The notes below the pieces were generated by a model. That model did not search any database and had not been told where the DNA came from. It worked only from the letters and a program-made list of their open reading frames with translations. A program made the translations under genes and the position numbers. This document shows, piece after piece, positions 1-15,776 of a stretch of 32,000 bases of DNA (positions are counted from its first letter, which is position 1; each line of letters opens with the position of its first letter). This stretch comes from an uncultured Verrucomicrobiota bacterium (GTDB lineage: Bacteria; Verrucomicrobiota; Verrucomicrobiia; Limisphaerales; UBA8199): NCBI GenBank assembly GCA_942493075.1, contig OW818681.1, positions 4,156,964-4,188,963 on the forward strand. The letters are read 5' to 3'.

Positions 1-96
1 TAACTCTCGGCCCTGATGACCTGCTCAAGCACCACGCGTGTGATTGCCTCGTAGATTTCACCTATGGCTGCTCCTGCCAGAGGTTGTGAATGTTGG

Positions 97-3000
97 TTAG
101 GTCTGCTCGGGTGGTTGCATTCGGCGGGTGTCGGGCTCCTGGGCCTGTTGCCAACCGTCGTCGTAAAAAAACTGGTCCACTTTGCCCGCCGGATTTTGGA
201 TGCAATGGATTTTGAAATCCGCAGTCTCGGCGTGCTCCACGATGTAAAGCCAGTAGAGGTCGCCCAGTTCCTGAGCTTTCAGAAACTCGGTGCGAGTGAG
301 ACCGACCCCGGTGTCGGTCCAAATATCAGAGAGGGACTTGACCTCGATGTAGCGCAAGATGCCCCCCGTGGCGGGGTCGCGACTTTCGATGTCGTATCCC
401 GGATGGGTGTGTGGCATTTCGTGGGGTTCGCACTGCAAGCTCTTCTCGAACTCGAGGACTCGCTGGATACCTGCATTGTTGATGGCCTGCCGACGCTGCT
501 GCAACTCAGGATCGGGGTCCTCGTCTGAGGGGGTGGGATCTTTGACTACGTAACTGCGCAGTTTTCCGCGGCGTGGTTGGCGAGGTTGCTGCCTCCCTGG
601 ACATTCCCCTGCCCCTCCCTCGCCATTACCATGCCGGGGTGAGGTTCCTGTCATCGTGAGAGTTGAACCGCCATGAACACCCGTGCCGTTCCGCCCCCCT
701 CCATTGTCCTTCTGAGGCGAAGGCGAACTGGTAGGTGGATTCAAGGGGGACTGGATTGACACTGAGGGCTGGGCGGGGGGAGGACTGTCAGGTGCACCGG
801 CCGGCTGTGGGTTGGTTACAGAAAAATCCTGGGCGGATTGATCACCGATGGTCCTTATGGCCTGCCCGGCCGGAGCCGACTCCGCAGGCGGAGACTCCAG
901 GTTTGGGAAACCAAGTGCGTCGAGCATGGCGGCGGCTTCAGCCAACGACTCGGCGGCCAAGACGTCTCTTAAGCCGGGAGCCAAGCGACCGGGTTCCTCG
1001 TCGGGGTAGAGAGCGAGAGCCAATTCCCGGGCGATCTGTGCCCACGGAATGCTATCGTCATGTGAAACGAAGAGAAGCAGGTTTCCGTCCGACCGAAATA
1101 GGGCCGGACAATCCTCGGGAGTTGAAGCGAGTTTACTGCCGAATGCATCCAACTCATAGGAAATGCGGAGGGTCACGACAGACTCGAAACGGATCGACTT
1201 GAGCTTCGCCAGTTTATCTGCGGGATTGGAATGCGCGAGTTGAGCATCAAGCACGCGTGCGAGCTGAAGAGAACGTTCCTCAATGCGTGCAACCAGTTCC
1301 AGGTTGGGGGTGGGGTACGAGCATTCGAGGAGTAGAATGTTGACAGTTCCGGCGAGAGTTCGAACCCCGGCGGCGGTCATGGCTTTGGCCGTGCCTAGCA
1401 AGCGCGGGATCGCATTCGATTTGAGAAAACCCTGGAACTTTGATGCCAAACCAGCACGGTCCTCAAAAAACAGCCACGTGGGAGGAGCCAGGACATGAGT
1501 GCTATTGGGGATGCATTTGACTTCAGCCAGGGAAGCAAGGTCGGAGGTGGTGCACTGACCATGTTCGAGAGTTGACTCAAGCATAGCCCAGCAAGCGAGG
1601 CATACGGCACGTGCCTCGTCATCCAGTTGCCGGTTTTTGGAACCGAACTCGTCGGCCAACCCGGCTAGGACGCGAAAAGCATCTTTGTGGGTGGGAGTCT
1701 CTCGGACGCCAATTGCATTAAAAAGGTCATTGAACTTGCGGAGTTCAGGCCCAAGTTGATGGCGGAAGCGGCCAAAGGGATGGGCAGTCCAAAAGACGGA
1801 AGCAGGCCTAACGTAATGGCCATCGGGCAAGCGAAGGCATGGTTGTCCTCTCAGGCGCAGGATGTCGGAATCGTCCGCGTTGTTGTTGAGGAAGTTGTAA
1901 ACCTCCTGGTTTACAGTGTTGCCGGATGAGGCGCAGTGAAGAAGATGATCCACGACTAAAGCCAAGGGAGGCGTGGACTTCAGGCCAAGAGCGCTAAACA
2001 AAGCCGAGGCAGTATTTTGAACAGAGCGATCAACATCCAGGAACTGAGCCTGCGAACTGAAGAGATAATCCTGAAATGTGGCATAAAGCTCAGAGGGGCT
2101 GAACCACTGAGTGGCGTTGCCTCGAGCAGGGAGCCACGCTAAGGACTTGAGAGGGGACAAGGCGTCGGTTCCGGTAGAAGTTGTCTGCAGGCGTGCAGCA
2201 AGGTGGGCAAAGATGGTACGTATGGCAGTGGCTGTGCTGTCACTTGGGGGAGATTGAACTATTTCCTGAACATGGGTGACGATGTTCTCGAAACGAGGGC
2301 TTTCCACGATGCCCAACCAAGAGAATAACTCGTTGGTAACAGTGGCATGCTCCGTCGGCACAAGGGCCTGCGGAACGTGATTCCCAAGGACCTCGACAAT
2401 AATTGCACTTGGGAAGTAGACTTCAGCGGGGCGGCGGAACTGGCCGTCGGCACACTCGATTAGGGGCAACTGAGCCAAGGCAGAACGGATCTCCGGGTCC
2501 TCAGCAATCTGGCTCCGATTTGTAGCGAGAAGCAATGTGGCTGCTCTAAGTTTATCTGCCGCCAAGTCGTCCTGCCTCAAAGCAGGGATCAGGTGCCGTG
2601 ACACGTAGACTGAGAAGGATAAATCCTGAATCCCCAGTTCACGGAGGAAATCATGATGTGAAGATAAGGCCTTAACATCCAAAATGGCGGCGAGTTGAAG
2701 GGGATCAGCAAAATCCCCGGGCAGTGAGAGTTTTGTCAGGGGATTGTAACCGCCGGCGCTTGGAAAAACGGGGAGGTCGGCGAGTCCTGTGATCAGTGTT
2801 TTATTATCGAGAATTTCCGTCCGGCGATCCACAAACCAGGCGATGAGTTTAGGCACTGTGATGCGGCCTTCCTTTACTGCCAAAGCAAAACCTTCTGCTC
2901 CGAGGTTGTGAATTACACCGATGGCCTCCGAAGAGCCAAAACGAGGACAAAGGGATACAAAAAGATCGAAAGTGGTCGTTTCTGTCGAGGCGAAAAGCAG

Positions 3001-4692
3001 TGTTGAGCCCAAATCCAGGAACATCGTTTCGGTGGCCTTATCGGAAGTGCGGTAAACCAAATTGCACGGACACAGACTGCCGTCGCGACTGACAGCAAGG
3101 GAGAGGTTAGCCAGAGAGTTGACGACGGTAACGGCCAGATGATGTTGATGCGGGCCGAAGGAGCGGCGACCCAGCAGGAGATTGATTTCATCCCAGAGAG
3201 CACGGATAGCGCCAGGAGTTTGCAACCATGAGGGCCATTCGCCTTTGGAAAAAGTCCTGGTGAGTCCGGCGAACTGTAACTGCCTAATCAGGACGTCAAT
3301 AGTCAGTTGGCGCACGCCAACTTCTTTGGATATGAGGAGGTTCTGATGGGGACGCAGATCCTCGTGGACACAGTTAATGCCGATTGACTGCAAAACGGGC
3401 AAGGCGTTTTTTTCCTCCGACTGCTGAAGGTAGTAAACCTCAGCAGGACTGCACCACTGGTTCAAATGATTGAAGACGAGAGGCTGGGTGCCAAGCGAGG
3501 GGGCGAGTTTAGTCCAGAATTGCTTGAACATCTTCTCGGCGCGACCGGCATCCGCCTCCTGCGCGACCTGAAAGATGCGTGAGAGGAGAGACCAGACCCT
3601 CTGGTGGCCGAGGGTGTCGCGCAGTTGGTAAAACGAGGAGGCGAAGGCGTCAGCGGCGGCGGCCAGAGCTGCTTTGTTCCACTGGGATTGGTAATCCTGC
3701 TCGAAGATAATGCGTTTGCGATCTTCAGAGGGGTAGAAGTCGGCATTGATGTGAAAAGGCAGACCGGTTCTTTGCTGGGTAGGCAACGTGGCGCAAAGCA
3801 GGCCGGATTGTAGTTCGCCGGCCGGAATGGCGATGAGAATGCCGGAGGAACGCTTAGGCTCGATCCGAGTTGGATGCTGAGTACGAATTTCATCTGCTCG
3901 TGCTGCGAAGCCACCCCGGAGCAGATGCCAGATGACGTCGGGGGAACCGTCCCCCAGGCTCAAAACAAGTGTATTTCCTTGCTTCACCCGTTCCAGATGG
4001 CGAATTAGATTGCCGTTCCTCTTGATGTGGACAGTGTCGATACTCTTCAGGAAGAGCATCGCAGTGGAAAGGGCCGTCTCCAACTCGGCCAAGAGGGCGA
4101 CCGGCGTGTCTCGGGTGACGGGTTCGGCGCGGAGGCCCTGGCGCATGGAAGAATGGGCGTCGAGGGCCCAGGGCAGGTAGAAGCGTGTGCCGGGCAAGTC
4201 CACGGGTAGGCAGCGTGAACAACCGCCACACTGTGCGATGCGTTTGTCGGGCGCTGCAGTCTCGTCGATGATCCAATGACGGCCAGACGAGATAAGTTCC
4301 GGGCGGTCTGTAATCTGGTAAACGGAGATGAAGCCGATGCCGAAGGCACCCGTGGTGTTGGCTTCGTGGCGTTTGTCTGCGCCCGCAACAATCCTGAAGC
4401 GATGGAAATCGCAACGGTGGGAACCGTGTGACGGTTCATTTCTCCAGTGGCATTCTTGTTCCTCGGGCTTAAGGCAGTCACTGAACTGGCCATTGTTTTC
4501 GACGATCAAAGCGTCGCCGCAAATGTTGAAGGTGAAGTGGGTGACGCCCGCGACGTCATCGGCATTCTGGAGCAACTCGTGAGCAAGAGTCGCGAAACCC
4601 TTTAGGTTGCGGAGCTTGGCGCCGAGGTCCTCGAGGTAATCGAGTTCGCGGCCAAAGTGAATGAGAGGTGCTGGAGCAGGTGGGTCAGGCAT
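97..4692 (-). CDS. 1531-aa sacsin-type GHKL ATPase with C-terminal DUF3883-like (PD-(D/E)xK fold) domain
   Basis: ATG at 4692, 2 nt after the stop of the upstream nuclease gene. The N-terminus has the GHKL N-box ELLQNADDV and G-box GAFGIGFISVY (sacsin/Hsp90-like pattern). A P/S/G-rich low-complexity linker lies at roughly nt 565-830. The C-terminal ~170 aa carry GYDIES...RYIEVKS...YWLYIVE, the D...ExK pattern I associate with DUF3883. Confidence 0.8.
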   Translation of the reverse strand: MPDPPAPAPLIHFGRELDYLEDLGAKLRNLKGFATLAHELLQNADDVAGVTHFTFNICGDALIVENNGQFSDCLKPEEQECHWRNEPSHGSHRCDFHRFRIVAGADKRHEANTTGAFGIGFISVYQITDRPELISSGRHWIIDETAAPDKRIAQCGGCSRCLPVDLPGTRFYLPWALDAHSSMRQGLRAEPVTRDTPVALLAELETALSTAMLFLKSIDTVHIKRNGNLIRHLERVKQGNTLVLSLGDGSPDVIWHLLRGGFAARADEIRTQHPTRIEPKRSSGILIAIPAGELQSGLLCATLPTQQRTGLPFHINADFYPSEDRKRIIFEQDYQSQWNKAALAAAADAFASSFYQLRDTLGHQRVWSLLSRIFQVAQEADAGRAEKMFKQFWTKLAPSLGTQPLVFNHLNQWCSPAEVYYLQQSEEKNALPVLQSIGINCVHEDLRPHQNLLISKEVGVRQLTIDVLIRQLQFAGLTRTFSKGEWPSWLQTPGAIRALWDEINLLLGRRSFGPHQHHLAVTVVNSLANLSLAVSRDGSLCPCNLVYRTSDKATETMFLDLGSTLLFASTETTTFDLFVSLCPRFGSSEAIGVIHNLGAEGFALAVKEGRITVPKLIAWFVDRRTEILDNKTLITGLADLPVFPSAGGYNPLTKLSLPGDFADPLQLAAILDVKALSSHHDFLRELGIQDLSFSVYVSRHLIPALRQDDLAADKLRAATLLLATNRSQIAEDPEIRSALAQLPLIECADGQFRRPAEVYFPSAIIVEVLGNHVPQALVPTEHATVTNELFSWLGIVESPRFENIVTHVQEIVQSPPSDSTATAIRTIFAHLAARLQTTSTGTDALSPLKSLAWLPARGNATQWFSPSELYATFQDYLFSSQAQFLDVDRSVQNTASALFSALGLKSTPPLALVVDHLLHCASSGNTVNQEVYNFLNNNADDSDILRLRGQPCLRLPDGHYVRPASVFWTAHPFGRFRHQLGPELRKFNDLFNAIGVRETPTHKDAFRVLAGLADEFGSKNRQLDDEARAVCLACWAMLESTLEHGQCTTSDLASLAEVKCIPNSTHVLAPPTWLFFEDRAGLASKFQGFLKSNAIPRLLGTAKAMTAAGVRTLAGTVNILLLECSYPTPNLELVARIEERSLQLARVLDAQLAHSNPADKLAKLKSIRFESVVTLRISYELDAFGSKLASTPEDCPALFRSDGNLLLFVSHDDSIPWAQIARELALALYPDEEPGRLAPGLRDVLAAESLAEAAAMLDALGFPNLESPPAESAPAGQAIRTIGDQSAQDFSVTNPQPAGAPDSPPPAQPSVSIQSPLNPPTSSPSPQKDNGGGRNGTGVHGGSTLTMTGTSPRHGNGEGGAGECPGRQQPRQPRRGKLRSYVVKDPTPSDEDPDPELQQRRQAINNAGIQRVLEFEKSLQCEPHEMPHTHPGYDIESRDPATGGILRYIEVKSLSDIWTDTGVGLTRTEFLKAQELGDLYWLYIVEHAETADFKIHCIQNPAGKVDQFFYDDGWQQAQEPDTRRMQPPEQT

Positions 4693-4694
4693 GG

Positions 4695-5636
4695 CTAGAC
4701 GGGGTCGCGGAGGGGATACTTATTGGGCTGTGAGGGGCAGTTCCAGCGAATGTCACAGATGTCGCAGGTCTTATCGTCTGGCAAACTAGCGCCAGTTGGC
4801 GCGGGCCATGATTGGGTTTGGCAGCAGGTCGCAATGTCTGCCGCCGTGATGTCAAAGGCTGCCAGTGCCTGCTGAACAAGAACGGGGGTGCCGTCAGTTG
4901 CCACACCGGCGCGCATGAAATCCACCACGTGGACCGCCGGCAATGGGCGAGTGGTAATCGGAGGTTGGCCGGGCTTCTGTTTCAGTTCGTTGAGAAAATA
5001 CAAGACTGCCCGGCGGGGGTAGTTACCCGTTTTGACCCGATAGAGTTGAGCGTAGACACTCATCTGCCATTCATAATCCAAGAGGGATGTGGAAGAGAGG
5101 GGTGGTTTGTCCGTGCCCTTGTAATCCCAGATCTCCCTCTCCCCTACGGCATCTGAGGCCAGAACATCGACTACCCCTCGAAGGATATAGGTGCTCCGTT
5201 CTGATTCGAGGCGGTATTCGGTGTCCAGCACACGGGGATACAAGGTCGGGCCTTCGATGTTGTTGAAGGCTTTGAGCACCTCCCTGGCCTGCTCGGCCAC
5301 GCGAGGTGAGGCTGGCCGAACGCCGTGGGCGCGCATGGCGCGATCCACTTCGAAGAAGTAAGCATCAATGTCGGTATCCGTGGGAAACGTTCCAGGGGGA
5401 TGGCCGAACAAACCGCTGAAGTGACGATGACATCGGTCTAGCACCTGATGGATCATCTGGCCGAAGTAGACCTGAACGGCTTGGGCCGGAACGAAGCCAT
5501 CATTTCCGAAGTAGCCGTATTGGCGGCGACACTTGCGGAAAGAGATGATGTCGGATGTGAGACTGAGCCGGGGACGAATCAAGGTGGCAGCGCGGGGGGT
5601 GACGAGTCCCGCAGGAAATAGATTGGCAGCGCTCAT
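4695..5636 (-). CDS. Cas4/RecB-family PD-(D/E)xK nuclease with 4-Cys (Fe-S type) cluster
   Basis: ATG at 5636 overlaps the helicase stop (ATGA, 5633-5636). The longer start at 5681 in the ORF track would overlap the helicase by 49 nt. One N-terminal Cys (FRKCRRQYGY) plus C-terminal CDICDIRWNC (C-x2-C-x5-C). VVDVLASD...EIWDYKGT gives D...(D/E)xK. QMSVYAQLY matches the RecB-family QhxxY motif. Confidence 0.8.
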   Translation of the reverse strand: MSAANLFPAGLVTPRAATLIRPRLSLTSDIISFRKCRRQYGYFGNDGFVPAQAVQVYFGQMIHQVLDRCHRHFSGLFGHPPGTFPTDTDIDAYFFEVDRAMRAHGVRPASPRVAEQAREVLKAFNNIEGPTLYPRVLDTEYRLESERSTYILRGVVDVLASDAVGEREIWDYKGTDKPPLSSTSLLDYEWQMSVYAQLYRVKTGNYPRRAVLYFLNELKQKPGQPPITTRPLPAVHVVDFMRAGVATDGTPVLVQQALAAFDITAADIATCCQTQSWPAPTGASLPDDKTCDICDIRWNCPSQPNKYPLRDPV

Positions 5637-7894
5637 AAGACGTTTGTTCTGTGTTTCAGCCAACCCGCGCTGGGGCCGCACGGGATGGCGTCCTTGTTGA
5701 AGTGCGTGGCGGTTCCCAGGAAGATCAAAGCGTATTCCGCACGAGAGTAGGCGACGTAATACTGCCGGACCATATCCATTTGGGCGCGTTCGCCTTCGGG
5801 CCTACGGAGAAAACTTCGGGCCGGATTGGCGGGATATTGAGAGAACAGTGTTTCGAGGCGATGACTCTTGCCGACCTCGGCGCCTTCCCCCATGTGGCCC
5901 ACGAAGACATACGGGAATTCCAATCCTTTGGACTGGTGCATGGTCATGATAGGCACCATGCCCGCCGGGCATATCACTTCATCGTTTTCCTCATCGTTCA
6001 TGCCCACATCCATGATGTAGGTGAGGAAGAGATGGTAGAATGAGTTTAACCAACCGCCGACCACTTCGCCCGGGTAGGTGCTGGAGGCTCGCATGGTACC
6101 GCGAGTGACATTGGGCCGTGCCAAACCAGTAGCCGGATCCAAGACAGGGGTGGAGTTGTAAGCCTCCAAAAGCTTGGTCAGGCGTGCGAAACGAACCCGG
6201 CGCACGGGGTCGTTCTGCCACGTGGAGAACGGTTCACAACTCATTAGGTAATAGGTCAACTCTTGCAGGTTGCAGTCGAAGTATTCACCGGGTTTCGCGA
6301 GGATGGCGGCGCGGCATTGGGCGACATAAGCGGTGAGGGCGGGGTTGGCGGCCGCAAGGGCGTCGTAGGTGGTGCGAAAATCCGCCTCAGCGGCTGGAAT
6401 AGAATTCTTGTTAGCCGGATCCTGGGCGTAACGGCGTTGGGGGTCCACGACTGCCAGAATGGCACCCAGCAAACCCTGAACCTCCTCCTGCTCCATGAAG
6501 GTTTTGTTGCGCGGGTTATAGACGGAGAGCCCCCGTGCTTGCAAAGCGGCAGCAAAGGGGCCGGCATTGCGAGGAGACTCTTTGGTGCTCTTGAGCAGGA
6601 GACAGCACTCGTTGGGATCGTTTACCTTGCCAGTGCTGATCAAGTCAGCGACGGTTTGAGCAAACAGATCGGCGACGTCGCCGAGTTTAGCGCCAACGAG
6701 TCTGCCGATCGCCGGATAGGTTTGAGGAATGAGCTTGCGAGCAACGACCGGAGGTTTGGGCGACCGCGCTCCGGGGGTCAGCATTAATGGGAATGCGGTA
6801 ATGTAGTCGTTGATGAAATCAACGATATCGGTATGGGAGCGGAAGTTATCAACCAGACTGTAGCGCGCAACCGTGGAAGGATTCAGGCCGAGGAACGCCT
6901 GACAGGCTCGATCGAACGTGACCATGCACTCGACCGAGCCGCCCCGGAAGCGATACATGGCCTGGTCATCGTCACCCACAACAACGAGATTATGAGGCGC
7001 GCGACGGGCGAGTTGGAAGTAAATTTCCTCCTGCATGGGGTTGGTATCCTGGTATTCGTCCACGAGGACCCACTGGATGCCCGGGTTGGCAGGGGATCCG
7101 TCGCCGGTGAGAAAGGACTGGCCCAAGGGGGTGCTGAGGAAGCTCAGGAAACGGCCCTGGAGTTGTGAGAAATCGCAACGATAATTGTTAAGCAGGTGCT
7201 TAACATATTCGTCGTAGAGATCGGCCAACCGAGCCAATTGTCCGCCGACCGCCCGCAAGCCCGTGACTGAAACGCGATCTTCAACCATGCGGTTGAGCAG
7301 CACAATCAGGGCACTGGTGGTATTCCAACGGCTGGGGGGGTAAGCCCTCGTAGGTTGCCATTGCAACGGAGTAAACATCCAAGGGAAGGCGCCCCAGAAA
7401 GTGATTTCAGCGGGAGCATTGGGTGCCTTGACCAGACTCATGTGTTCGCGGACAAAGAGCGCCTGCTCGAACTCATCCATGAGGCGGACGTTCTGATAAT
7501 TGGGCGCGCGGAATTCCTGCAGGAGATCGTTGGCCAATCCATGCAAAGTGCCGACGCGCAATTTGGAAACGTCGATCACCACCAAAGAGGGATCGGCAGC
7601 CACCAGCCGAGCGCGGTAGTTAAGAATGCGGTCTTCGAGATTCTTAGCAGCCTTTTCTGTGAAGGTAGTGACAAAAACAGATTCCGGCGGGACGCGTTGG
7701 GCTTGCAGAGGATCGCCACTGACGTAGAGGAGGCGAAGGACCATGACGGTAAGGACTTCGGTCTTGCCTGAACCCGGGCCGGCGAGGACCCAGGCCGGGC
7801 CTTGCGGATGGCGGACAATGGCCTCCTGCTGGGGCGTGAGTTGTTTGGTTGCACCAGGCGGGTAGAGAATGGCGAGGAGTTCGGTGATGGTCAT
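5633..7894 (-). CDS. UvrD/PcrA/Rep-family SF1 helicase
   Basis: Walker A AGPGSGKTEV. Motif Ia TFTEKAAKNL. Motif II VLVDEYQDTN. Motif III VVGDDDQAMYRFRGG. DNFRSH. Motif V MHQSKGLEFPYVFV. Motif VI YVAYSRAEYAL. The ATG at 7894 overlaps the HTH gene stop (ATGA). Confidence 0.92.
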   Translation of the reverse strand: MTITELLAILYPPGATKQLTPQQEAIVRHPQGPAWVLAGPGSGKTEVLTVMVLRLLYVSGDPLQAQRVPPESVFVTTFTEKAAKNLEDRILNYRARLVAADPSLVVIDVSKLRVGTLHGLANDLLQEFRAPNYQNVRLMDEFEQALFVREHMSLVKAPNAPAEITFWGAFPWMFTPLQWQPTRAYPPSRWNTTSALIVLLNRMVEDRVSVTGLRAVGGQLARLADLYDEYVKHLLNNYRCDFSQLQGRFLSFLSTPLGQSFLTGDGSPANPGIQWVLVDEYQDTNPMQEEIYFQLARRAPHNLVVVGDDDQAMYRFRGGSVECMVTFDRACQAFLGLNPSTVARYSLVDNFRSHTDIVDFINDYITAFPLMLTPGARSPKPPVVARKLIPQTYPAIGRLVGAKLGDVADLFAQTVADLISTGKVNDPNECCLLLKSTKESPRNAGPFAAALQARGLSVYNPRNKTFMEQEEVQGLLGAILAVVDPQRRYAQDPANKNSIPAAEADFRTTYDALAAANPALTAYVAQCRAAILAKPGEYFDCNLQELTYYLMSCEPFSTWQNDPVRRVRFARLTKLLEAYNSTPVLDPATGLARPNVTRGTMRASSTYPGEVVGGWLNSFYHLFLTYIMDVGMNDEENDEVICPAGMVPIMTMHQSKGLEFPYVFVGHMGEGAEVGKSHRLETLFSQYPANPARSFLRRPEGERAQMDMVRQYYVAYSRAEYALIFLGTATHFNKDAIPCGPSAGWLKHRTNVL

Positions 7895-8097
7895 GGCAGC
7901 AAATCCTTTGTAGGGACCTTGAGGGCCTTGGCGATTTTGGTGAGGGTAGAGAGGCGGACATCCACATCGCCGCGCTCGATGCGGCCGATGGTGCGGACGG
8001 GAAGAGCGGCGGCCTTGGCGAGGTCGCGCTGCAGCCAGGCGCTGCCCTCACGTCGTTGTTTAATGGATTGGCCGACTTGTTGGGCGAGGGGTTTCAT
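7891..8097 (-). CDS. XRE-family helix-turn-helix transcriptional regulator (68 aa)
   Basis: WLQRDLAKAAALPVRTIGRIERGDVDVRLSTLTKIAKAL is a typical Cro/C1-type HTH. It is the first gene of a four-gene coupled unit. Confidence 0.85.
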   Translation of the reverse strand: MKPLAQQVGQSIKQRREGSAWLQRDLAKAAALPVRTIGRIERGDVDVRLSTLTKIAKALKVPTKDLLP

Positions 8098-8137
8098 AGA
8101 AAAAGCAAAAACCCGAGGGACATTTGTGTCCTTCGGG
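8098..8137 (-). terminator. Intrinsic terminator after the 621-aa gene
   Basis: On the minus strand: CCCGAAGGAC-ACAAAT-GTCCCTCGGG (10-bp stem with one A:C mismatch) followed by TTTTTGCTTTTTCT. The T-tract ends at 8098, and the XRE ATG begins at 8097. Confidence 0.7.
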
Positions 8138-8184
8138 TGGGTGGTTGAGATTTATTATTTAGCGGAGGTAGTAATCTGGGCGCG

Positions 8185-10050
8185 TCAAGCTCCATTCGTG
8201 CGTGTGATGAGCCCAAGGTTAGCAAGCGATTGTGTCACAGTCGCCAGCGTGCATACCTCGAAACCAGCTAGTTGGAATGCTTGCTTTTCCTCGGGGCCGT
8301 AACCTCCTTCTAAGACGGCGATGCCTTGCTTCACTTGATTGGATTTGAGTCCATCTGCCGATAGGCGGTAGCGGGCCATGGAAAGGTGTGCGCAAAACTC
8401 CCGCGTCTTATGTCCACAATCGGCTGGCGCCTTCATGCCTGATATGAAAACAGGGATTAATTGGTCCGCCCTGCGGACGCAAAGGCTTACGCGCCAGTTT
8501 CCGGCCTGGTCGCTTTGCGAGCAGTCCGTCACGAGTGTCGGTATTTCCTCGTCCTCTAGAACCGATACGCCATCTGCCCAGCGGCACTTCTTGAAGATAG
8601 CGCGCACTAGTTCTTCTAAGGGATTTATTGCCGATTGTGGGCCAATAATCCTGTGCGTCTTGCGGAGGAGGTAGCTCGTCCTCAGGTTCTGGGTGTCGAG
8701 GTCTTTAGGAATCAGACGGGCGATTGCGCGCAGCAGTAGGGCATATCGTGGCGCACCCTTTATGGGGCGTCTGTTGCTGTAGATCCCACGAATGTCATTG
8801 CGCGTTGCTTTTAGGGTGGCGTCTGAATTGTTGATCGCGGTTACGAGAGGGTAGGTGCCTAGGCCAGTCGCTTCGATTAACATCTCCGCAAACTGATTGT
8901 ACTCGTATGACGGTGTTACGGATGTGTACTGTGCCCAGAGTGCCTTAGCAGAAGCTTGGCGCAGCTTTGTGATGTCCTTTACGGAAGGTGCGCTTTTGAT
9001 TGCTTCCAGTGCCTCTAGGACTTGGGCCGAAGCGGCGAAAAGTGTGCGGGTGCGATCAAGGGCTTCCGAGAGAGCCTCGTGGTTGACCCCCAGGGTGTTT
9101 GCCTTCCGGGCAGCGAGGAAGAGTTCGAGGTCCTCTGAGGGGTGGGCAACAGTTTCGCCTGCCATGCCCTCCTCTATATGCTTGATGAGAAAGGCAAATT
9201 GCCCGTTTCTGTCCTCAATAGGAAGGCGGTGCAGAGCCTTTAGTACCTTGAGGTGGTTTGGGTCTTTAACTTCTATGGTCCATGCTTCTAAGGTCCTAAC
9301 AATCGCGTCGCATGAACCGAGTTCTGGGAACAGGAGACTTACGAGCGCGATTTGGAGCATCGCATTACGCAAACGCTCAAAGTTGTTCGACAAGTGAGTA
9401 TGGAGTTGAATTTTTGAGCAGAAGAGTCTCTCCGACGTCCAAAGGTCGAGTTTAGCATTTTTCGGGAAGGCCGTCGGAGTTAGTGGTGTGCGGATCGAGG
9501 CACGCAGTGGGGCGAGCGAGCCAAGATCGGTTTTGATGCTACGGAGCGCTGCGTGAATCTTATCTGTGCCGGTTACGCGTAGCGACTCGGCCCTGGATAG
9601 GTCTGCTTGTAGTTTCTGGTGGTTGAATAGAACGCATTCGTCGAACAGTTCGCGAAAGGAACGAAGAAAGTCGGGGTACCAACCGGCAGCGCGGTATTCG
9701 TTGCCTGAGAATTCTGCCTCAAATACTACGCATGTGCTCGTTGATTTTGGAATATAGCGTTTGAGGTCACACAGTTCTGAAACGGTTCTCCAAAATTTCG
9801 CGTGACTGGTCTCTTTGCTGTCCCAGTAGCAGACATGAAGGAAGTTCGAAGACGTTGTGTCGACAAGGAAGTCCGGGATAGTATAGATAAGCCGCTTATA
9901 CTGGTGGGGCTTGTGGCAGATTGTCGCGTGCTTGCAGAGGGATTGGCAGTTATGGCGCTCGCGATTGGGCTCGTACTCAATATTTCTGGTGTAAATGCCC
10001 TCGAGCGCCAACCACGTCAGCGCTTCGTAAAAATCAGCTCTGAAGCTCAT
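8185..10050 (-). CDS. 621-aa hypothetical protein, possible N-terminal PD-(D/E)xK nuclease domain
   Basis: ATG at 10050. I recognise no family. The N-terminus has a helix containing Glu (FYEALTWLALEG), then IPDFLVD, then 16 residues, then WDSKE (PD...DxK spacing). The rest looks helical. GC is visibly lower than in the flanking genes. Confidence 0.6.
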   Translation of the reverse strand: MSFRADFYEALTWLALEGIYTRNIEYEPNRERHNCQSLCKHATICHKPHQYKRLIYTIPDFLVDTTSSNFLHVCYWDSKETSHAKFWRTVSELCDLKRYIPKSTSTCVVFEAEFSGNEYRAAGWYPDFLRSFRELFDECVLFNHQKLQADLSRAESLRVTGTDKIHAALRSIKTDLGSLAPLRASIRTPLTPTAFPKNAKLDLWTSERLFCSKIQLHTHLSNNFERLRNAMLQIALVSLLFPELGSCDAIVRTLEAWTIEVKDPNHLKVLKALHRLPIEDRNGQFAFLIKHIEEGMAGETVAHPSEDLELFLAARKANTLGVNHEALSEALDRTRTLFAASAQVLEALEAIKSAPSVKDITKLRQASAKALWAQYTSVTPSYEYNQFAEMLIEATGLGTYPLVTAINNSDATLKATRNDIRGIYSNRRPIKGAPRYALLLRAIARLIPKDLDTQNLRTSYLLRKTHRIIGPQSAINPLEELVRAIFKKCRWADGVSVLEDEEIPTLVTDCSQSDQAGNWRVSLCVRRADQLIPVFISGMKAPADCGHKTREFCAHLSMARYRLSADGLKSNQVKQGIAVLEGGYGPEEKQAFQLAGFEVCTLATVTQSLANLGLITRTNGA

Positions 10051-10074: not shown

Positions 10075-10254
10075 TCACAACCGATCTTCAGGTGAATCTG
10101 CGTATTGCACCGGCAACGCCACGCCCTTATGACAGGCAGACAGAAGTCCAGATTCTGCGCCAAACCTATGCAATTCTCGTTTGAATGGCCAGATACCGTG
10201 AAAAGAGATGTTTGACAGTGAGTTGGTCTTGAGTGGGTATGTGGTTGGGTTCAT
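10075..10254 (-). pseudogene. Relic (or 59-aa mini-ORF) derived from the 3' end of a second herA-like gene
   Basis: Hand translation gives MNPTTYPLKTNSLSNISFHGIWPFKRELHRFGAESGLLSACHKGVALPVQYADSPEDRL*. The segment IWPFKRELHRFGAESGLLSACHKGVALPVQ matches the intact HerA C-terminus IFPFKRELQVMGIGQAILSASYKGVPLPVQ at 18 of 30 positions. The ATG at 10254 overlaps the 102-aa ORF stop (ATGA). The ORF is below the 60-aa cut-off of the supplied track. Confidence 0.7.
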
Positions 10255-10559
10255 TTATTCTTGAGGAATCCCGTAGGAACATACTTGCGCAGGTACTGGC
10301 GGTAGAGAGTTTTGAAGCGTTCTTGCGAACAAGAAAACTTGAGTGTAACCCGCAAGTGTTTTAGAAGGGCAGTGGGCGTCTTTAGGTTCGGACCGTAATG
10401 GTCAATCAGAAAGGCCATGACTTGGTGGTCCTCGAGCGATCGAGGATTGTGTCTGGTATTCGCTTTCATGGCTTTCAGAAGGAAAGAACGACAGCACGAC
10501 TGAGCCTGCTTTCGTGAGTGATGAGGGCGTCTTACCTTGGCTGTACCTCTACTTCGCAT
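10251..10559 (-). CDS. Small hypothetical protein (102 aa; may start at the internal Met MKANT, nt 10469)
   Basis: The ORF begins 5 nt after the herA-like stop. The C-terminal ~70 aa look protein-like (SLEDHQVMAFLIDHYGPNLKTPTALLKHL). I recognise no family. Confidence 0.45.
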   Translation of the reverse strand: MRSRGTAKVRRPHHSRKQAQSCCRSFLLKAMKANTRHNPRSLEDHQVMAFLIDHYGPNLKTPTALLKHLRVTLKFSCSQERFKTLYRQYLRKYVPTGFLKNK

Positions 10560-10564: not shown

Positions 10565-12355
10565 TCAGAATTCCGGAATTTGCACAGGCAACGGCACGCC
10601 CTTGTAGCTCGCCGAAAGTATGGCCTGACCGATCCCCATGACCTGCAATTCCCGCTTGAACGGGAAGATGTCGTTGCTGGCCGTGTGGACAGCGGCCTGG
10701 CGTTCGTCCTCGTTGCCGAGGGCCATGGTAATCTCCGTGTTGATCTGGCTGAGGATGCCTTGGTCAATTTCGGTGACCTGCTGCGAAACGACAGTGAGGC
10801 CGAGGCCGAACTTCCGGCCCTGGCGGGAGATGTCGCGGAAGACGGAACCGAATTTCATCCGGGCCGGATTCAAAATGGAGGGAGCTTCCTCGATGATGAT
10901 ATTGACGGCAGGAAGATCGTTGATGTTCCGCAACGTGCCGTCCGGCCCACGGTAAGGTGAATCCGGCGCGGACAACCGTTCCTTCAGGATGTTTTTCAGG
11001 GTGTCCTGCAGGGGAATATGGCGGTCAATCTCACCTGGTTGGCCGTTTGCGCCGACGAAACTTGGCCAGTCACGCGCGCTCTTGAGAGCCTTGCGAAGCG
11101 CAAAGATGGTGCGGGCAACGACGGTGGTCAGCAGAAACTGTTCGGTCTCGGTCATCAGAGACGTATCCACATCCAGCACCCGCCCACGTTCTAGTGCGAG
11201 GACGATGTCCGCCAACGAGGAACTGTATTGCTGGGCGTTGGGGACAAGGTTGGACCGGTTGCCGCTCAGGAAACCCAACCGGCGGTTGATGCCTGCCAGT
11301 GAGGTTTTGTGAATCACGTTGTCATCAGCGACGACATCGCCATTGAGCACACCGGAGATCCAGTTCTCACCCTGCATATCGCCTATGATCTCGGCGGCAG
11401 CAGACATGATATCGGTGAACTCCATGATGGAGATGATATCCTGCGGGGTGATGTCGCGCCGGTGGAGGCGAACGCGACGGCCGTGGGTGCCGATGACGGT
11501 ATCGGCCTGGATGGCGGTTTCATCACGACAGGAAAGGTAGAAGAAGGGTTCGACAAGGCCGGTGCGTTGCTCGGGGTTCATAGCCGCCACGATGCGGGTA
11601 ATGCCGCCGGGGGAACCGGGTTTCCATTTGGCGAACTCATCGTGCGGGTCCACGGCGAACAGTGAAACCAAACGGTCCTTGGGTCCCCACTGAGCGCGGG
11701 CCGTGCCGAACAGGCGGAGGTTATTGGCGTAGATGCTATCAATGAGCACCATGAGGTTGTTGCTCTTGCCCGTACCCGTCCGACCAAAGATGCCAAGGTG
11801 GTGCGCGAAGTATTCGCCGGGAATTGAGATCCTGACAGTGGACAAGGAATGCTCGCCAGCTAGGAGATTGCCGATGAAAACACCCGTGCCGAGTTGGGAT
11901 TGCAGGATAGCGGCGAGGCAGAGCTCCTGGCGTTGGGCGGCCTGCGGGCCGCCGAAACCAACCTTGTAAACTTTGGTGAGGTGGGCCGGAAGTTTGCGCG
12001 GCGTGCGGAAATGCCAACGGCCGTTTTCATCCACTTCGGCATAGCCAAGCAGAGAACCGGTAAGGCGAAGCAATTTATCGCGGTCGAAGTCATCCGCGTA
12101 AAAGGCATCGGCGAGAGAAATCTCGTTCTTGGCCATGAAGTCCATGTCCTCATCGCGGCGAAGGACGTTGGCGTATTCCGTCATGCGGAACAGGTAAACG
12201 CGGTCGCCGCCACGGTCGGACGGGATGAGAAAAAGGTCGCCGATAGAGGTATCGAGGTTGCGGGCGAATACCGTTATCTGGGTGGTAGAAGCCATGGCCA
12301 GCACGCCGAAAAACTGGTCCTGCGCCAACGTTTGGGTGAGTTCCTGGTAGGTCAT
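10565..12355 (-). CDS. herA: HerA/FtsK-superfamily ATPase (DUF87-type, HerA-like)
   Basis: Walker A GIFGRTGTGKSN. Walker B-like VNIIIEEAPS. About 600 aa. The ATG lies 3 nt after the NurA-like stop, which is the classical nurA-herA pairing. Confidence 0.85.
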   Translation of the reverse strand: MTYQELTQTLAQDQFFGVLAMASTTQITVFARNLDTSIGDLFLIPSDRGGDRVYLFRMTEYANVLRRDEDMDFMAKNEISLADAFYADDFDRDKLLRLTGSLLGYAEVDENGRWHFRTPRKLPAHLTKVYKVGFGGPQAAQRQELCLAAILQSQLGTGVFIGNLLAGEHSLSTVRISIPGEYFAHHLGIFGRTGTGKSNNLMVLIDSIYANNLRLFGTARAQWGPKDRLVSLFAVDPHDEFAKWKPGSPGGITRIVAAMNPEQRTGLVEPFFYLSCRDETAIQADTVIGTHGRRVRLHRRDITPQDIISIMEFTDIMSAAAEIIGDMQGENWISGVLNGDVVADDNVIHKTSLAGINRRLGFLSGNRSNLVPNAQQYSSSLADIVLALERGRVLDVDTSLMTETEQFLLTTVVARTIFALRKALKSARDWPSFVGANGQPGEIDRHIPLQDTLKNILKERLSAPDSPYRGPDGTLRNINDLPAVNIIIEEAPSILNPARMKFGSVFRDISRQGRKFGLGLTVVSQQVTEIDQGILSQINTEITMALGNEDERQAAVHTASNDIFPFKRELQVMGIGQAILSASYKGVPLPVQIPEF

Positions 12356-12358: not shown

Positions 12359-13549
12359 CTAGATGCCAGTCATGTGAACCTGCTCGGGGTCTTCGAGAAA
12401 TGCGCCCCGCAGCAACCCTTCCTGCTGGGCGTACTGAAGGAGCAAATCGCGAGCGGTTTTGCGCTCCTGTTTGGTGAGGCTGGCGCGCCGATGGGCGGCG
12501 TGCATGGGATACGGGTAACCGTAACTGCGCACCTCATGACAGGTGAAGTCCAGCTCCTCAAAGAACCGTGCTTCTTTTTCATCGTCGCCGGCCAAATGGG
12601 TCTGCCACCAGGCAGCGTCCACGTCCACGCGCATGGGAAAGGCCGTGGCCTCGAACTTGAACAGGTAAGACACACTGAGTTTGGGTGGGATTTCCCGGTC
12701 TTTGAGGAAAGAGAGGGGCGTGTCACCTAAGGCCTCGGAGGGGAGACGCAAAAACCAGTGCGATTTGAGACCGTGTTTATCGCGGGCCAGCCGACCGATG
12801 AAATCGCCGTTGGGGATGTTGTGTGATTTGCACAACGCGACGATGCCGGTGTTTTGTTCGTTCGCCTTGGTGATCAGGTAGCGCTTCAAGAGTTCAGGCA
12901 GATAAGGGGAATCGCCGAGAAGGAAATAGACCAAGGACGTATCCATGATCAGATACCTGGGTTTCTGCTGAAGGAGATGAATGGCCATACCCAATTCCGC
13001 CAGCGAACGGAGGAGGTAAGCGTGCGTCGCAACCTGCGAAGCATGAGAGATGGCGAAGTTGGCCCAAGTCACCTGCGACGGCTTGAGCGACTTGCCAAAC
13101 TGAGAGTAAACGGCGCAATAGTCCGACTCTTTGACCAATTCTTCTAGGCCCAGTCCGACGAGCGACTCTAAAAATGTTTTGTAAGCATCGGTCAACGCCT
13201 TGGGTTGATCCTGCAAAACAATGTGGCGTTTCAGCAGTGGCCCAAGACCACCCACCGCCGCCATCTTGCTTTGACGGGCACTCTGGGTATCGTAGGTGAC
13301 GCCGGCCGCGGTGGCGAAATGAACGAACACATCATCTTGTTGGATGATGGGGAACTCTCCTGAACCATCCACGGCACAAATGCGAAAATCCTGATCGAGG
13401 GTCGTGGTGTGCCGATACGGTCGGATGCGCTGAGCAAGAGTGTTGATCTCCTTATCCGTGGGTTTTGCGCCCTCGATGGCTCGCTTGAACTGCAGAATTG
13501 CTGCTCGCGAGGAGTCCAGCAAAGCCCGGTCTAGGAGGTCGAAGTCCAT
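12359..13549 (-). CDS. nurA: NurA-like 5'-3' nuclease
   Basis: N-terminal ICAVDGSGE (the NurA DGS motif). A second LIMDTSLVYF motif stands in for DGSL. C-terminal YGYPYPMHAAHRRASLT fits the NurA GYPyxLxxAH pattern. It sits 10 nt downstream of the DpdA-like gene and 3 nt upstream of herA. Confidence 0.75.
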   Translation of the reverse strand: MDFDLLDRALLDSSRAAILQFKRAIEGAKPTDKEINTLAQRIRPYRHTTTLDQDFRICAVDGSGEFPIIQQDDVFVHFATAAGVTYDTQSARQSKMAAVGGLGPLLKRHIVLQDQPKALTDAYKTFLESLVGLGLEELVKESDYCAVYSQFGKSLKPSQVTWANFAISHASQVATHAYLLRSLAELGMAIHLLQQKPRYLIMDTSLVYFLLGDSPYLPELLKRYLITKANEQNTGIVALCKSHNIPNGDFIGRLARDKHGLKSHWFLRLPSEALGDTPLSFLKDREIPPKLSVSYLFKFEATAFPMRVDVDAAWWQTHLAGDDEKEARFFEELDFTCHEVRSYGYPYPMHAAHRRASLTKQERKTARDLLLQYAQQEGLLRGAFLEDPEQVHMTGI

Positions 13550-13559: not shown

Positions 13560-15776
13560 TCAGTTTGGTGTTCCTGTGAGTTTGCTGAAAAGTCGGAAGA
13601 ACCACCAGGTATTGTGAAACCCCCTCCGCCGGTTGCGATTGTTGCGGCGGAAGATCACAACGTCGATACCGGTGGATTTGCAAACGGCGCAGGGACAATT
13701 GCGCCAGGGTGCATCTTCAAGAAGGCGGCGATAATGAGGCTCGTTGCGAGGGTCGCCCCCCATGAGTTGGTCATATGCGACCACCTGTTTGAGGGTCGAG
13801 TCGATGTCGAGTTTGCCTTGATCAAAAGCGCGTAACGCCTGAAGTGATTTCTGCTCCTCCTTGCGCAGTCGTTCGAGGGTCCACCCTTTCTGAGTTAACT
13901 TGGATGCCTTGGCCGTGAACGAATCGCCACCCTCGCGTTGGAGTGGAGGCACGCGAAGTGCCGCGTAACGCCATTTCTCCTCCAACTCTGCTTCTTCGCC
14001 ATTGCTGGTTTTGGGATTGAGCGTGGCGATAAACCGGTCCACGTCACCAACGTAGTAGTTTGAAGTGGCAGACAACCACGCCTGGCGGAGAAAACGAGCG
14101 CTATCAATGCTGTTCACCCCGGCATCAGAAAAGGCCGTGATGGCTTCAGGGCGGGCGACGCCGAAAAGGTGAATTTGAACGCCCGGTTTACGAATACGAT
14201 TTACGCCTTCGAGCACCGAAAGGATCTCGGTTGTCTTCGAGCGGACCAATCCGCCAAGAGCAATGTATTTGTATCCCATGTCCTGCTGCTGCTTGAACAT
14301 CTCGACTTGGGATTCGACGTCGTATCCCTGACAGCCAGCTATCGGAGTAAAATTGGATCCGCGCTTTTTGTGGGATTGGATAAAATCTTTGGCGTTATCG
14401 AGCGTGATTTTCCAGCGGCGCTTGCCTTCTGTTAAGTCATCTTCCTCATACGCTGCGAGGTGGTCGCGTTTCTCAAATAGGTCACGCGGATAGGTCCGCC
14501 CCTTGACCAAAGGGAGGCCTTCTTTCGTCAGACGTTCGAACTCATCTTTGCTGATGCGCTCTTCGCCACCGCCGGGTTTGAGGATGGCATAGACGGGGCG
14601 ACTCAGATGGGCGGGAATGATAAGGTGATCGATGGAGACGCCGTAGTCGAAATCCAATGATTCATAAAAATCCAATGTCTCCTCGGTCTCGTAGGGCGGG
14701 ACTTCCTCATCAATATAGTTGAATGCGCCACAATCGCCCATGACCGGGAAGTTGCGAGGCACGCGCACATGACGATGGATGCCAATCTTGCGGATGCGCT
14801 CTTTCTTGGTCTGATTATCTTCGATGACAGACTTGCTTACGAGAATGCCATCGTAGTTGGGCGATGGATAAATTTCATGGGCGTAAACATCATGAACGTA
14901 GGGGTCGCGGCCCTCTGTGATGCCGTCGCAGAGAAAATCATAATCCGGATCAACGCGGTCATCCCACTCGGGAATGAAGTATTTCATCCGAGCCTTGGGG
15001 CGGGGAGTGAAGAAGGTGAAGCGCTGGCGCTCCTGCTCCACCAGGTGTGGCGCTTTGGAGGTTTTGACAGATTCGCTTTTGGGTTGATCGAAAAACGCGA
15101 GGACATCGGTAGCCGGGTCGCGCAACTTCTGGGGCAAGTGCGGATCTCCAGCGAGCAACTTCAACAGGCGCGCCGCGAGTTCGCCTTTGAGCCCAACCAG
15201 CCCGCAGGAAAAGCGTTTGGCCTCCGGGTTGGAGAGGGTGACGACGCGGAGGTTGGGCAAGCGCGGAATCTTCTTGGCCGGTCCCTGACCGCAGAATAAA
15301 AGGGTGAGGCCACCGAACTTCACACTGGCATCGAGTTGGCAGGCTTGCAGGTAATTGTCGCCGAGCAAGATCAGTCCCAGATCGTAGGCCTGTGCGACGG
15401 TGTTTCGGAAATCCTGCGGGATATTGAGGGTATCGGCCCAGGAGCGGATCTCTTTGCTCCCCATGGTGGCAAAGGTGCACTCGTAGGGGGCGATCTTGCG
15501 ATTCTCGGGGATTAGGCCGTAGCCGGCGCTGAGAATGAAGAGTTGATGGTTGATTGTTGAGAGTTGAGAGACAGAACTGAGAGACTGGATGCCGCGCATG
15601 AGGCGGACGTGCTGCTCACCAGAGTACAGTTGCCCTGCGGGGGTCAGAAACTGCTTAAGTTCCCGTTCCTTTTGCCGCACGTGCGCAGGTCCCTTCTGAA
15701 AATCCGCGAGGCTGATGGAATTCTCAGGCGCATGGACCTTTTCGCCTGTGCAGGATGTAATGATTAGTAGCCTCAT
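13560..15776 (-). CDS. Fusion protein: N-terminal DUF6884-like domain + C-terminal TGT-superfamily (DpdA/archaeosine-TGT-like) transglycosylase
   Basis: I prefer the ATG at 15776 (MRLLIITSCTGEK); the track uses a TTG at 15785. The N-terminus has ITSCTGEK...QLYSGEQH...ILSAGYGLIPENRKIAPYECTF (DUF6884-like pattern). The C-terminal half has TGT landmarks: VMGDCGAFNY (cf. DSGGFQ), YIALGGLV, IHLFGVARPE...VNSIDSARF (catalytic Asp region), and the Zn motif CPCAVC...(x21)...H (CxCxxC...H). Confidence 0.8.
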   Translation of the reverse strand: MRLLIITSCTGEKVHAPENSISLADFQKGPAHVRQKERELKQFLTPAGQLYSGEQHVRLMRGIQSLSSVSQLSTINHQLFILSAGYGLIPENRKIAPYECTFATMGSKEIRSWADTLNIPQDFRNTVAQAYDLGLILLGDNYLQACQLDASVKFGGLTLLFCGQGPAKKIPRLPNLRVVTLSNPEAKRFSCGLVGLKGELAARLLKLLAGDPHLPQKLRDPATDVLAFFDQPKSESVKTSKAPHLVEQERQRFTFFTPRPKARMKYFIPEWDDRVDPDYDFLCDGITEGRDPYVHDVYAHEIYPSPNYDGILVSKSVIEDNQTKKERIRKIGIHRHVRVPRNFPVMGDCGAFNYIDEEVPPYETEETLDFYESLDFDYGVSIDHLIIPAHLSRPVYAILKPGGGEERISKDEFERLTKEGLPLVKGRTYPRDLFEKRDHLAAYEEDDLTEGKRRWKITLDNAKDFIQSHKKRGSNFTPIAGCQGYDVESQVEMFKQQQDMGYKYIALGGLVRSKTTEILSVLEGVNRIRKPGVQIHLFGVARPEAITAFSDAGVNSIDSARFLRQAWLSATSNYYVGDVDRFIATLNPKTSNGEEAELEEKWRYAALRVPPLQREGGDSFTAKASKLTQKGWTLERLRKEEQKSLQALRAFDQGKLDIDSTLKQVVAYDQLMGGDPRNEPHYRRLLEDAPWRNCPCAVCKSTGIDVVIFRRNNRNRRRGFHNTWWFFRLFSKLTGTPN
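15541..15568 (+). repeat. NGTTGAR heptamer micro-array (4 units) inside the DpdA-like CDS
   Basis: agttgat ggttgat tgttgag agttgag. The first 13 nt (agttgatggttga) are identical to 27151-27163. On the minus strand it is read in frame as part of SLSSVSQLSTINHQL. Confidence 0.7.

Follow-up and report, generated by a model that had tools for sequence, protein, structure and literature searches.

Tiamat, which reportedly goes back to the original anti-phage screen by Millman et al. in 2022, is catalogued as a single-gene system, for which PADLOC holds only models of the giant protein TmtA. In the 32,000-nt window analysed here (positions 4,156,964 to 4,188,963 of contig OW818681.1, assembly GCA_942493075.1, from an uncultured Verrucomicrobiota bacterium), tmtA is instead the last of four coupled genes, following those for a small helix-turn-helix (HTH) regulator, a UvrD helicase and a Cas4/AddB-type nuclease, and it lies within a 7-deazaguanine modification island. 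The best-supported reading of the four genes is an HTH-controlled, translationally coupled Tiamat operon, which appears to form the distal end of a conserved island of roughly 20 genes, as a transcription unit insulated from the rest. From the synteny we lean towards the view that this operon serves a Dpd-like 7-deazaguanine system without DpdB as its restriction or effector arm and depends on the modification.

What is known of Tiamat comes here mainly from the accessible text of an October 2026 bioRxiv preprint (Yuan et al., doi 10.64898/2026.09.30.754977), in which the purified B. cereus protein hydrolyses ATP, cleaves single-stranded DNA (ssDNA) efficiently and nicks double-stranded DNA weakly, and in which earlier work is summarized as showing that B. 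cereus TmtA protects against phage. Strict curation of the family in that text relies on an ATPase domain plus a C-terminal NOV_C/DUF3883 nuclease, both of which were found in the TmtA of the window. The frequent gene neighbours described there are superfamily 1 or 2 (SF1/SF2) helicases, often fused to nucleases, DNA methyltransferases, and HTH or WYL regulators; among the helicase-associated types, I-H and I-I carry a helicase-nuclease fusion with or without a DNA methyltransferase and I-G carries a NERD-helicase, and an analogy with MutL-UvrD is drawn. The window protein has the Hsp90/sacsin-type GHKL ATPase, DUF3684 core, flexible linker and NOV_C nuclease in the same order as described Tiamat proteins, with the catalytic residues kept. 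As in types I-H and I-I, it is accompanied by an SF1 helicase of UvrD/RecB type, a PD-(D/E)xK nuclease and a DNA-modifying enzyme, and an HTH gene occurs in some of those types as well. In contrast to the types in the accessible text, the helicase and nuclease of the window are split, and a DpdA transglycosylase with base synthesis replaces the methyltransferase. The preprint text available to us mentions none of Dpd, TGT, queuosine, HerA or NurA, and an association of Tiamat with Dpd is not mentioned in the accessible portions of the Tiamat preprints or in the searchable Dpd and BREX-related papers. The giant Tiamat gene and the theme of its helicase, nuclease and methyltransferase neighbourhood are known already; Tiamat together with a split UvrD/Cas4-type nuclease and an HTH regulator inside a deazaguanine/NurA-HerA island appears to be an undescribed composite.

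Several other systems share parts of this locus. Dpd (dpdA-K; PMC10164549) has in common with it the DpdA transglycosylase, preQ0 genes, a DpdC-like domain, several helicases and a mobile island. However, no DpdB was recognised in the window island, its DpdC-like domain is fused to DpdA, and dpdD-K are replaced by NurA-HerA, a 621-aa protein, UvrD, the Cas4-type nuclease, TmtA, a second TGT and Hel308-like and DEAD helicases. A PADLOC scan of 16 island proteins (three small orphan open reading frames, ORFs, at 15992-18053 were scanned with Pfam only) gave no match to DpdB, DpdD, DpdE, DpdG, DpdH, DpdI or DpdK and weak, helicase-level matches only to DpdF and DpdJ; the canonical Dpd restriction genes were rejected as the identity of the operon. 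In MADS an N6-methyladenine (m6A) mark goes together with two ATPase-nuclease modules, one of which has the HerA-like MAD8 (PMC13662399). Both MADS and the island are large systems of many genes built on a modification, with an XRE regulator and at least two ATPase-nuclease modules, and the HerA of the window matches mad8; MADS differs in its mark, m6A rather than 7-deazaguanine, and in having an OLD-like MAD3-MAD4 pair where the window island has Tiamat, UvrD and the Cas4-type nuclease. The BREX-related TGT/HerA capture system (PMC12839542) was rejected because it needs PglZ and BrxC-like genes, to which there were no matches among the scanned island proteins. Like AddAB/RecBCD and Cas4, the window combines a UvrD-type SF1A motor with a RecB-family nuclease bearing an AddB/Cas4-type four-Cys cluster; unlike AddAB/RecBCD, it has one motor and one nuclease encoded by two genes, no Chi-recognition subunit, and linkage to a defence gene in place of recombination genes. 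The pairing of a GHKL ATPase carrying an endonuclease domain with UvrD recalls MutL-UvrD mismatch repair, but the window has no MutS-like sensor, its endonuclease has a PD-(D/E)xK fold, and the genes lie in a mobile island.

Results

The giant protein is TmtA

The four minus-strand ORFs sit where a first-pass annotation, made from the sequence alone, had placed them (ORF calls and sequence read-out of the window), and its description of an XRE-type HTH protein, an SF1 helicase, a RecB/Cas4-type nuclease and a giant GHKL/DUF3883 protein is supported by Pfam and by motifs. Its statement that the architecture matches no named system fails for the key gene. In PADLOC, the TmtA model PDLC03969 covers the 1531-aa protein from residue 15 to residue 1524 (profile positions 11-1509 of 1563) with 1497.6 bits and E = 0. 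The protein is thus full-length TmtA of Tiamat, a named anti-phage system. Pfam detected SACS (E 4e-15), DUF3684 (1e-7) and NOV_C (2e-14, residues 1409-1496), and in a PDB search the N-terminal residues 17-143 matched the sacsin crystal structures 5v44-47. In an alignment of 31 homologues the GHKL boxes ELLQNADD and GAFGIGF are invariant (E39, N43, D45, D46 and G115-F121), as are the nuclease residues D1434, E1450 and K1452; a disordered P/S/G-rich linker spans approximately residues 1265-1380.

Inserted in the GHKL domain are also C73, C81, C94 and H97 and a second group, C155, C158 and C161, a clade-specific set that is invariant in 31/31 aligned homologues. This pattern of residues suggests one or two zinc sites, and the set is unmentioned in the accessible text of the Tiamat preprint (doi 10.64898/2026.09.30.754977).

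The distribution of tmtA is sporadic and island-borne. No full-length TmtA homologue was found among 60 relatives searched, and across 400 genomes of the phylum the sole match was weak and C-terminal, in one genome. Plasmids gave four weak matches, the best being a solitary tmtA on a Calothrix plasmid, and a scan of genome contigs yielded three TmtA loci, none of them Dpd-type. TmtA homologues overall number at least 600.

UvrD and the Cas4-type nuclease form a split helicase-nuclease

The gene junctions given in the first-pass annotation were all read directly in the sequence. The HTH stop and the UvrD start share the ATGA at 7891-7894 (a 4-nt overlap), the UvrD stop and the nuclease start share that at 5633-5636, and 2 nt (4693-4694) separate the nuclease gene from tmtA. 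By the second ATGA the nuclease gene begins with ATG 5636 and not with GTG 5681 further upstream, and the resulting 313 aa agree with the 314-316 aa of homologues elsewhere.

UvrD matches the Pfam families UvrD-helicase (1e-44) and UvrD_C (4e-10), its translation carries the Walker A motif GPGSGKT and DEYQD, and its nearest solved relatives in a PDB sequence search are PcrA, UvrD, Rep, AddA and RecB. It also matches the GajB models of PADLOC (E 2e-31); Gabija was rejected nevertheless, since there was no GajA match among the scanned island proteins, and Hachiman was rejected for having helicase-level matches only. The nuclease matches PDDEXK_1 over profile positions 7-247 of 247 (2e-17) and gave no match in a PDB sequence search. 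Its D...DxK, QxxxY and C-terminal CxxCx5C motifs are conserved among nine split or fused homologues, in which D157, D171, K173, Q191, Y195, C291, C294 and C300 are invariant. Eight of the nine alignment rows keep the N-terminal Cys of the cluster, and the ninth is truncated there. By these motifs the protein is assigned to the Cas4/AddB-type RecB family with a predicted four-Cys Fe-S cluster.

Further alignment showed that UvrD and the nuclease are colinear with single UvrD-PDDEXK proteins of ~950 aa that adjoin other tmtA genes, so that the pair reads as a split AddA/RecB-like helicase-nuclease, and the fusion of the two genes in other loci is good evidence for a joint function of their products. 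The linkage of TmtA homologues to helicase and nuclease genes, for which the first-pass annotation had called, was examined in 38 TmtA-bearing sequences (the window locus and 37 fetched contigs, several of them truncated and a few near-duplicates). A UvrD-family gene lies within 10 kb of tmtA in 21 of these and directly adjoins it in ~17, and in most UvrD-bearing loci the helicase and PDDEXK_1 domains form one ~950-aa protein. The window UvrD is 28% identical to the fused UvrD of the P0008/L015 type, where the TmtA proteins are 51-57% identical, and 68% identical to the UvrD of locus L017, where TmtA is 47% identical; similar TmtA genes have evidently changed partners. A complex prediction for UvrD with TmtA residues 1385-1531 scored 0.01, which speaks neither for nor against binding.

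Table 1 Coordinates of the operon genes and of neighbouring features in the window
Feature	Position	Strand	Description
HTH gene	7891-8097	-	68 aa; XRE family
uvrD	5633-7894	-	753 aa; UvrD/PcrA-type SF1A helicase
Cas4/AddB-type PD-(D/E)xK nuclease gene	4695-5636	-	313 aa from ATG 5636; predicted four-Cys (Fe-S) cluster
tmtA	97-4692	-	1531 aa; GHKL ATPase, DUF3684 core, P/S/G-rich linker, NOV_C (DUF3883) nuclease
Hairpin and T-tract	8098-8138 (stem ~8111-8138)	-	Directly before the HTH start (ATG at 8097)
621-aa protein gene	8185-10050	-	Two restriction-endonuclease-like folds; slot between herA and HTH gene
herA	10565-12355	-	Pfam DUF87 and HerA_C; PADLOC HerA and mad8 (mad8 E 4e-16)
nurA	12359-13549	-	396 aa; NurA-fold nuclease
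DpdC'-DpdA fusion gene	13560-15785	-	DUF6884/DpdC-like domain and DpdA DNA transglycosylase
folE2-queD-queE-queC-queF	18298-21929	-	Pfam GCHY-1, PTPS, Radical_SAM, QueC, QueF; preQ0/preQ1 supply
TGT2, 3' end	1-16	+	Second TGT-family gene, convergent with tmtA; remainder before the window

The operon belongs to a recurrent gene array

The first-pass annotation had noted that the operon lies beside the DpdA/NurA/HerA genes in the same orientation, and this arrangement proved to be a co-directional array that recurs elsewhere. The order DpdC'-DpdA, NurA, HerA, ~600-aa protein, HTH, UvrD, nuclease and TmtA recurs in six loci with TmtA proteins 45-59% identical; these loci were found through TmtA, which is hence present in them by construction. 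The encoded proteins are of similar size throughout: DUF6884-TGT ~700-750 aa, NurA-like 396 aa, HerA 596 aa, the orphan ~600-645 aa, UvrD ~755 aa and PDDEXK ~315 aa. After tmtA come a convergent TGT gene (~315 aa) and a Hel308-like helicase gene (~850 aa), then a divergent HTH gene with a DEAD helicase gene (~775 aa), and these genes recur in 4/5 of the other TmtA-sampled Dpd-type loci. In L103 and L104 the DpdA fusion gene comes right after the que genes, and all genes are co-directional down to tmtA.

A sample drawn from the NurA side was blind to TmtA. The NurA-like protein has ~110 representatives at 32-93% identity, all but two above 48%, and three long contigs were taken with NurA proteins 65%, 55% and 49% identical. 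The UvrD and PDDEXK genes directly follow the ~600-aa gene in all three, and a sacsin-type GHKL giant is present in two, one a divergent sacsin-type protein and the other a 1469-aa protein with an HNH domain. Over ten Dpd-type loci in total, the helicase-nuclease was found in 10/10 and the GHKL giant in 9/10 with constant order and orientation, and wherever a Dpd-type locus was examined, the DpdA/NurA/HerA and preQ0/preQ1 genes kept their synteny with the operon. A scan of viral contigs with the NurA family gave one truncated locus.

Two of these loci show variations at the tmtA position. On the P0228 contig (JGI 3300072015), an HTH gene and a UvrD-PDDEXK fusion gene are followed by that for the 1469-aa sacsin-ATPase protein, in which HNH replaces the PD-(D/E)xK nuclease. 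One Tiamat-like effector is here swapped for another within the same island type. In L105 the nuclease gene abuts convergent RadC and TGT2 genes; TGT2 follows the nuclease gene there too, and the fetched stretch ends inside it.

Related TmtA proteins are found beside DNA methyltransferases

The closest TmtA relatives outside the Dpd-type set, those of P0008 (57% identical) and L015 (51%), have a UvrD-PDDEXK fusion and an N6_N4 methyltransferase as neighbours. Both fall with the Dpd-linked TmtAs in one clade with 100% support, and the tree nests these two methyltransferase-linked proteins among the Dpd-linked ones. Phylogenetic proof of an exchange of TmtA between Dpd and methyltransferase contexts was sought, but in an approximately unbiased (AU) test a single clade of Dpd-linked TmtAs was not rejected (p = 0.075), and the claim is limited to the observation that close TmtA relatives have different partners, methyltransferases in some contexts and DpdA in others. 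The layout of fused UvrD-PDDEXK, TmtA, N6_N4 methyltransferase and ResIII was recovered many times, and methyltransferases occur in other TmtA clades as well; further arrangements join TmtA to methyltransferases, ResIII/RE_endonuc helicase-nucleases, RadC or HerA modules. On the P0008 contig (ENA ERZ1426828), genes for MksB, MksE, MksF and DUF7281 (Wadjet-like condensin) stand directly upstream of the UvrD-PDDEXK fusion, TmtA and methyltransferase genes.

The HTH regulator and the hairpin at its start

The 68-aa HTH protein matches Pfam HTH_3 (E 9e-11) and, in PADLOC, HTH_VI and the 'Control_protein' models of restriction-modification (R-M) systems (the latter with E 8e-8). In size and in position, overlapping the first enzyme gene, it resembles an R-M controller (C) protein. 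An HTH gene precedes the helicase gene in 8/9 of the other Dpd-type loci, none being called in L106.

Folding of the region directly before the HTH start gave an 11-bp stem of -17 kcal/mol (z = -4.4; 0/200 shuffles fold as well), which a simple terminator scan had not listed because of one internal mismatch. The stem …GAAGGACA-N4-TGTCCTTC…, the T-tract and the spacing to the ATG recur in four other loci, with two compensatory pairs over the five loci. The T-tract suggests a terminator or insulator, and the conservation of the stem sequence together with a second copy of the palindrome suggests an operator. The intrinsic terminator placed before the unit by the first-pass annotation corresponds to this hairpin with its T-tract; in role, this predicted element could be an intrinsic terminator or insulator, the HTH operator, or both.

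The second copy of the palindrome, GGACA-CAAA-TGTCC, lies at L018:16373-16392 on the minus strand (G000:C1:4153372-4153391), ~11.7 kb from window positions 8115-8134, between the Hel308-like helicase gene and the other HTH gene of the island, and is without a T-tract; the 6.5-Mb genome has no third copy. A separate inverted repeat, ATGTGTAATT-N9-10-AATTACACAT, is conserved in three loci in the divergent promoter region of the Hel308-like and second HTH genes (L018:16400-16440, minus strand; L017:17850-17885; L099:21080-21115), its arms in the window genome being ATGTGTAGTT and TATTACACAT. It is probably the operator of the second HTH regulator.

A GmrSD_N gene stands beside the HTH gene in two Dpd-type loci, before it in L105, where the hairpin stays with the HTH gene despite the GmrSD inserted upstream, and between the HTH gene and uvrD in the P0006 contig. 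Such genes adjoining the operon would fit a modification-dependent, type IV-like nuclease unit attacking foreign DNA with other modifications and unrelated to the mark of the island, and a neighbouring gene of L100 combines DUF3883/NOV_C with EVE, a reader domain for modified bases. However, Pfam and PADLOC found no EVE, SRA, YTH or DUF262 reader domain in any of the four operon proteins, and the enzyme that regularly accompanies them makes a modification and does not read one. We therefore give the type IV-like unit almost no credence.

Discussion

Our analysis established what the proteins are, how their genes are coupled, that the synteny is conserved and that TmtA contexts with a methyltransferase alternate with contexts with DpdA. 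Owing to the Dpd synteny and the replacement of DpdA by methyltransferases among TmtA relatives, we favour a role of the operon as a restriction or effector arm, which of the two alternatives in the first-pass annotation is the better supported, the other being an independent system. The island itself probably writes a 7-deazaguanine base into its own DNA via the DpdC'-DpdA fusion.

Drawing on B. cereus Tiamat biochemistry, the MutL-UvrD analogy and restriction-modification logic, we propose how such an arm might work. TmtA would act as a dimeric GHKL ATPase clamp with a PD-(D/E)xK DNase, in partnership with the split UvrD/Cas4-type helicase-nuclease; physical complexes among the operon proteins and the regulatory role of the HTH protein are part of this proposal. 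DNA lacking the island mark would be recognised and nicked by TmtA, UvrD would load at the nick and unwind the DNA, and the single strands would be cut by TmtA and the Cas4-type nuclease, in keeping with the preference for ssDNA in vitro that the accessible preprint text reports for B. cereus TmtA. The resulting ends would be resected by NurA-HerA, and overall the logic of MutL, UvrD and an exonuclease would be directed at foreign DNA. As with C proteins in restriction-modification, the HTH protein and the hairpin or palindrome may ensure that this dangerous operon is expressed at a lower level or later than the modification genes.

The same GHKL-nuclease, UvrD and nuclease set mirrors mismatch-repair excision, the preprint itself makes the MutL-UvrD analogy in its accessible text (doi 10.64898/2026.09.30.754977), and the linkage to DpdA is conserved. 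These points could also be explained by a repair module for the modification pathway, in which a MutL-like nicking ATPase, UvrD and an exonuclease clear transglycosylation damage (abasic sites and nicks) and take no part in defence. In contrast, the same TmtA clade pairs with ordinary methyltransferases, which make no such lesions, B. cereus TmtA protects against phage according to the summary in that preprint, and the genes are sporadic and island-borne. Repair is thus highly improbable as the function of the operon.

Several observations weigh against the operon being a restriction or effector arm of the modification system. Tiamat is reported to defend alone, and the operon need not depend on the modification genes. 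The hairpin and T-tract mark it as a separate transcription unit. A solitary tmtA lies among housekeeping genes in L023 and another on a plasmid, and L105:13040-21194 is a Dpd/NurA/HerA island with HTH, UvrD and nuclease genes but without tmtA; therefore, TmtA is separable from the rest of the island. The AU result (p = 0.075) means that the six TmtA-sampled loci may be one inherited island rather than a repeated association. No DpdB-like ATPase was recognised, which leaves DNA modification in this organism a prediction, and the evidence at the locus consists of sequence, synteny and predicted structures.

The main rival that gains from such observations is an independent Tiamat system with a helicase-nuclease partner, co-inherited in the same mobile island and indifferent to the 7-deazaguanine mark. 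In addition to the cataloguing of Tiamat as a single-gene system with TmtA models only in PADLOC, the operon has its own HTH gene and upstream terminator-like hairpin, L022 and L030 carry TmtA and UvrD-nuclease with no recognised modification gene in the available flanks, and L105, an otherwise complete island, does without the TmtA that occurs alone elsewhere. Moreover, the GmrSD insertions beside the HTH gene in L105 and the P0006 contig indicate that the junction tolerates cargo, and defence genes cluster in islands anyway. Against these points, the NurA-sampled loci keep UvrD and the nuclease (3/3) and a GHKL giant (2/3) at 49-65% NurA identity and with varied domain fusions, order and orientation are fixed in 10/10 loci, and sister TmtA loci nearly always carry a DNA methyltransferase. 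We consider an independent system rather unlikely, and retain the restriction or effector arm as our preferred explanation.

More tentatively, Tiamat, UvrD and the Cas4-type nuclease may be a portable restriction engine that does not itself read the mark and is licensed by interchangeable modification modules, either m6A/N4-methylcytosine (m4C) methyltransferases or DpdA/NurA-HerA. If this is true, the island would be a Dpd system whose restriction arm is of an entirely different kind, and TmtA the first GHKL-nuclease immune protein governed by a deazapurine mark. How Tiamat discriminates self from foreign DNA and what executes restriction in Dpd-type systems are two questions that this conserved locus joins, and we offer the hypothesis that the deazaguanine mark shields host DNA from the Tiamat-UvrD-nuclease machine. 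The locus also shows that Tiamat can have its helicase-nuclease partner either as a single protein or as a pair, and that near-identical Tiamat genes meet different DNA-marking chemistries; this is useful for defining Tiamat subtypes in defence-system catalogues, where at present tmtA is the only gene scored. Since Tiamat is related to eukaryotic proteins, namely plant NO VEIN and human sacsin, insight into its licensing would reach wider.

Other genes of the island

In the DpdC'-DpdA fusion, the DpdA part scores 419 bits with NCBIfam NF041059 (equivalog cut-off 200), and PADLOC matched DpdA at 2e-114 and DpdC at 3e-10. The N-terminal part of the DpdC models matches the domain fused to DpdA, and a 102-aa ORF after herA (10251-10559) matches only their C-terminal part (E 1e-7); this ORF is missing from the other loci, where the ~600-aa gene directly follows herA. 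BLASTP linked the 396-aa protein to NurA by no more than a GYPYP motif, and the link came from a fold search: with an AlphaFold model at a predicted local distance difference test (pLDDT) value of 88, the top Foldseek matches were NurA 2ygk (E 2e-10), HerA-NurA complexes and TdpAB 8wfd.

Before the window, on L018, lie the remainder of TGT2, an 846-aa Hel308-like helicase gene, the HTH gene with a 766-aa DEAD helicase gene, and an integrase gene at the island edge. Two tyrosine-recombinase genes (L018:12169-13494 and L018:9268-10557) flank the far end of the island, and no tRNA gene turned up in the 52 kb that were examined. Elsewhere, in a Verrucomicrobiota metagenome-assembled genome, a distant tmtA follows SIR2-like, NurA, HerA and DruA genes (L003:4451-14191), a further recurrence of NurA-HerA with Tiamat.

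The 621-aa protein gave no Pfam, PADLOC or NCBIfam match. Its AlphaFold model (pLDDT 89) has a helical region joining two restriction-endonuclease-like folds; Foldseek returned nothing clear for this model, and VIA-align related residues 476-615 to Can2, Cdn1 and AF1548 (Z 8.6-9.8) and residues 1-190 to Bse634I and Cfr10I (Z ~7). Proteins at the ~600-aa slot of other loci are barely alignable with it and show weak C-terminal similarity only. It looks like a fast-evolving specificity or nuclease cassette. Eighteen homologues of the protein were found, of which at least two, judged by identical lengths of their longest contigs, probably share contigs with NurA-family members.

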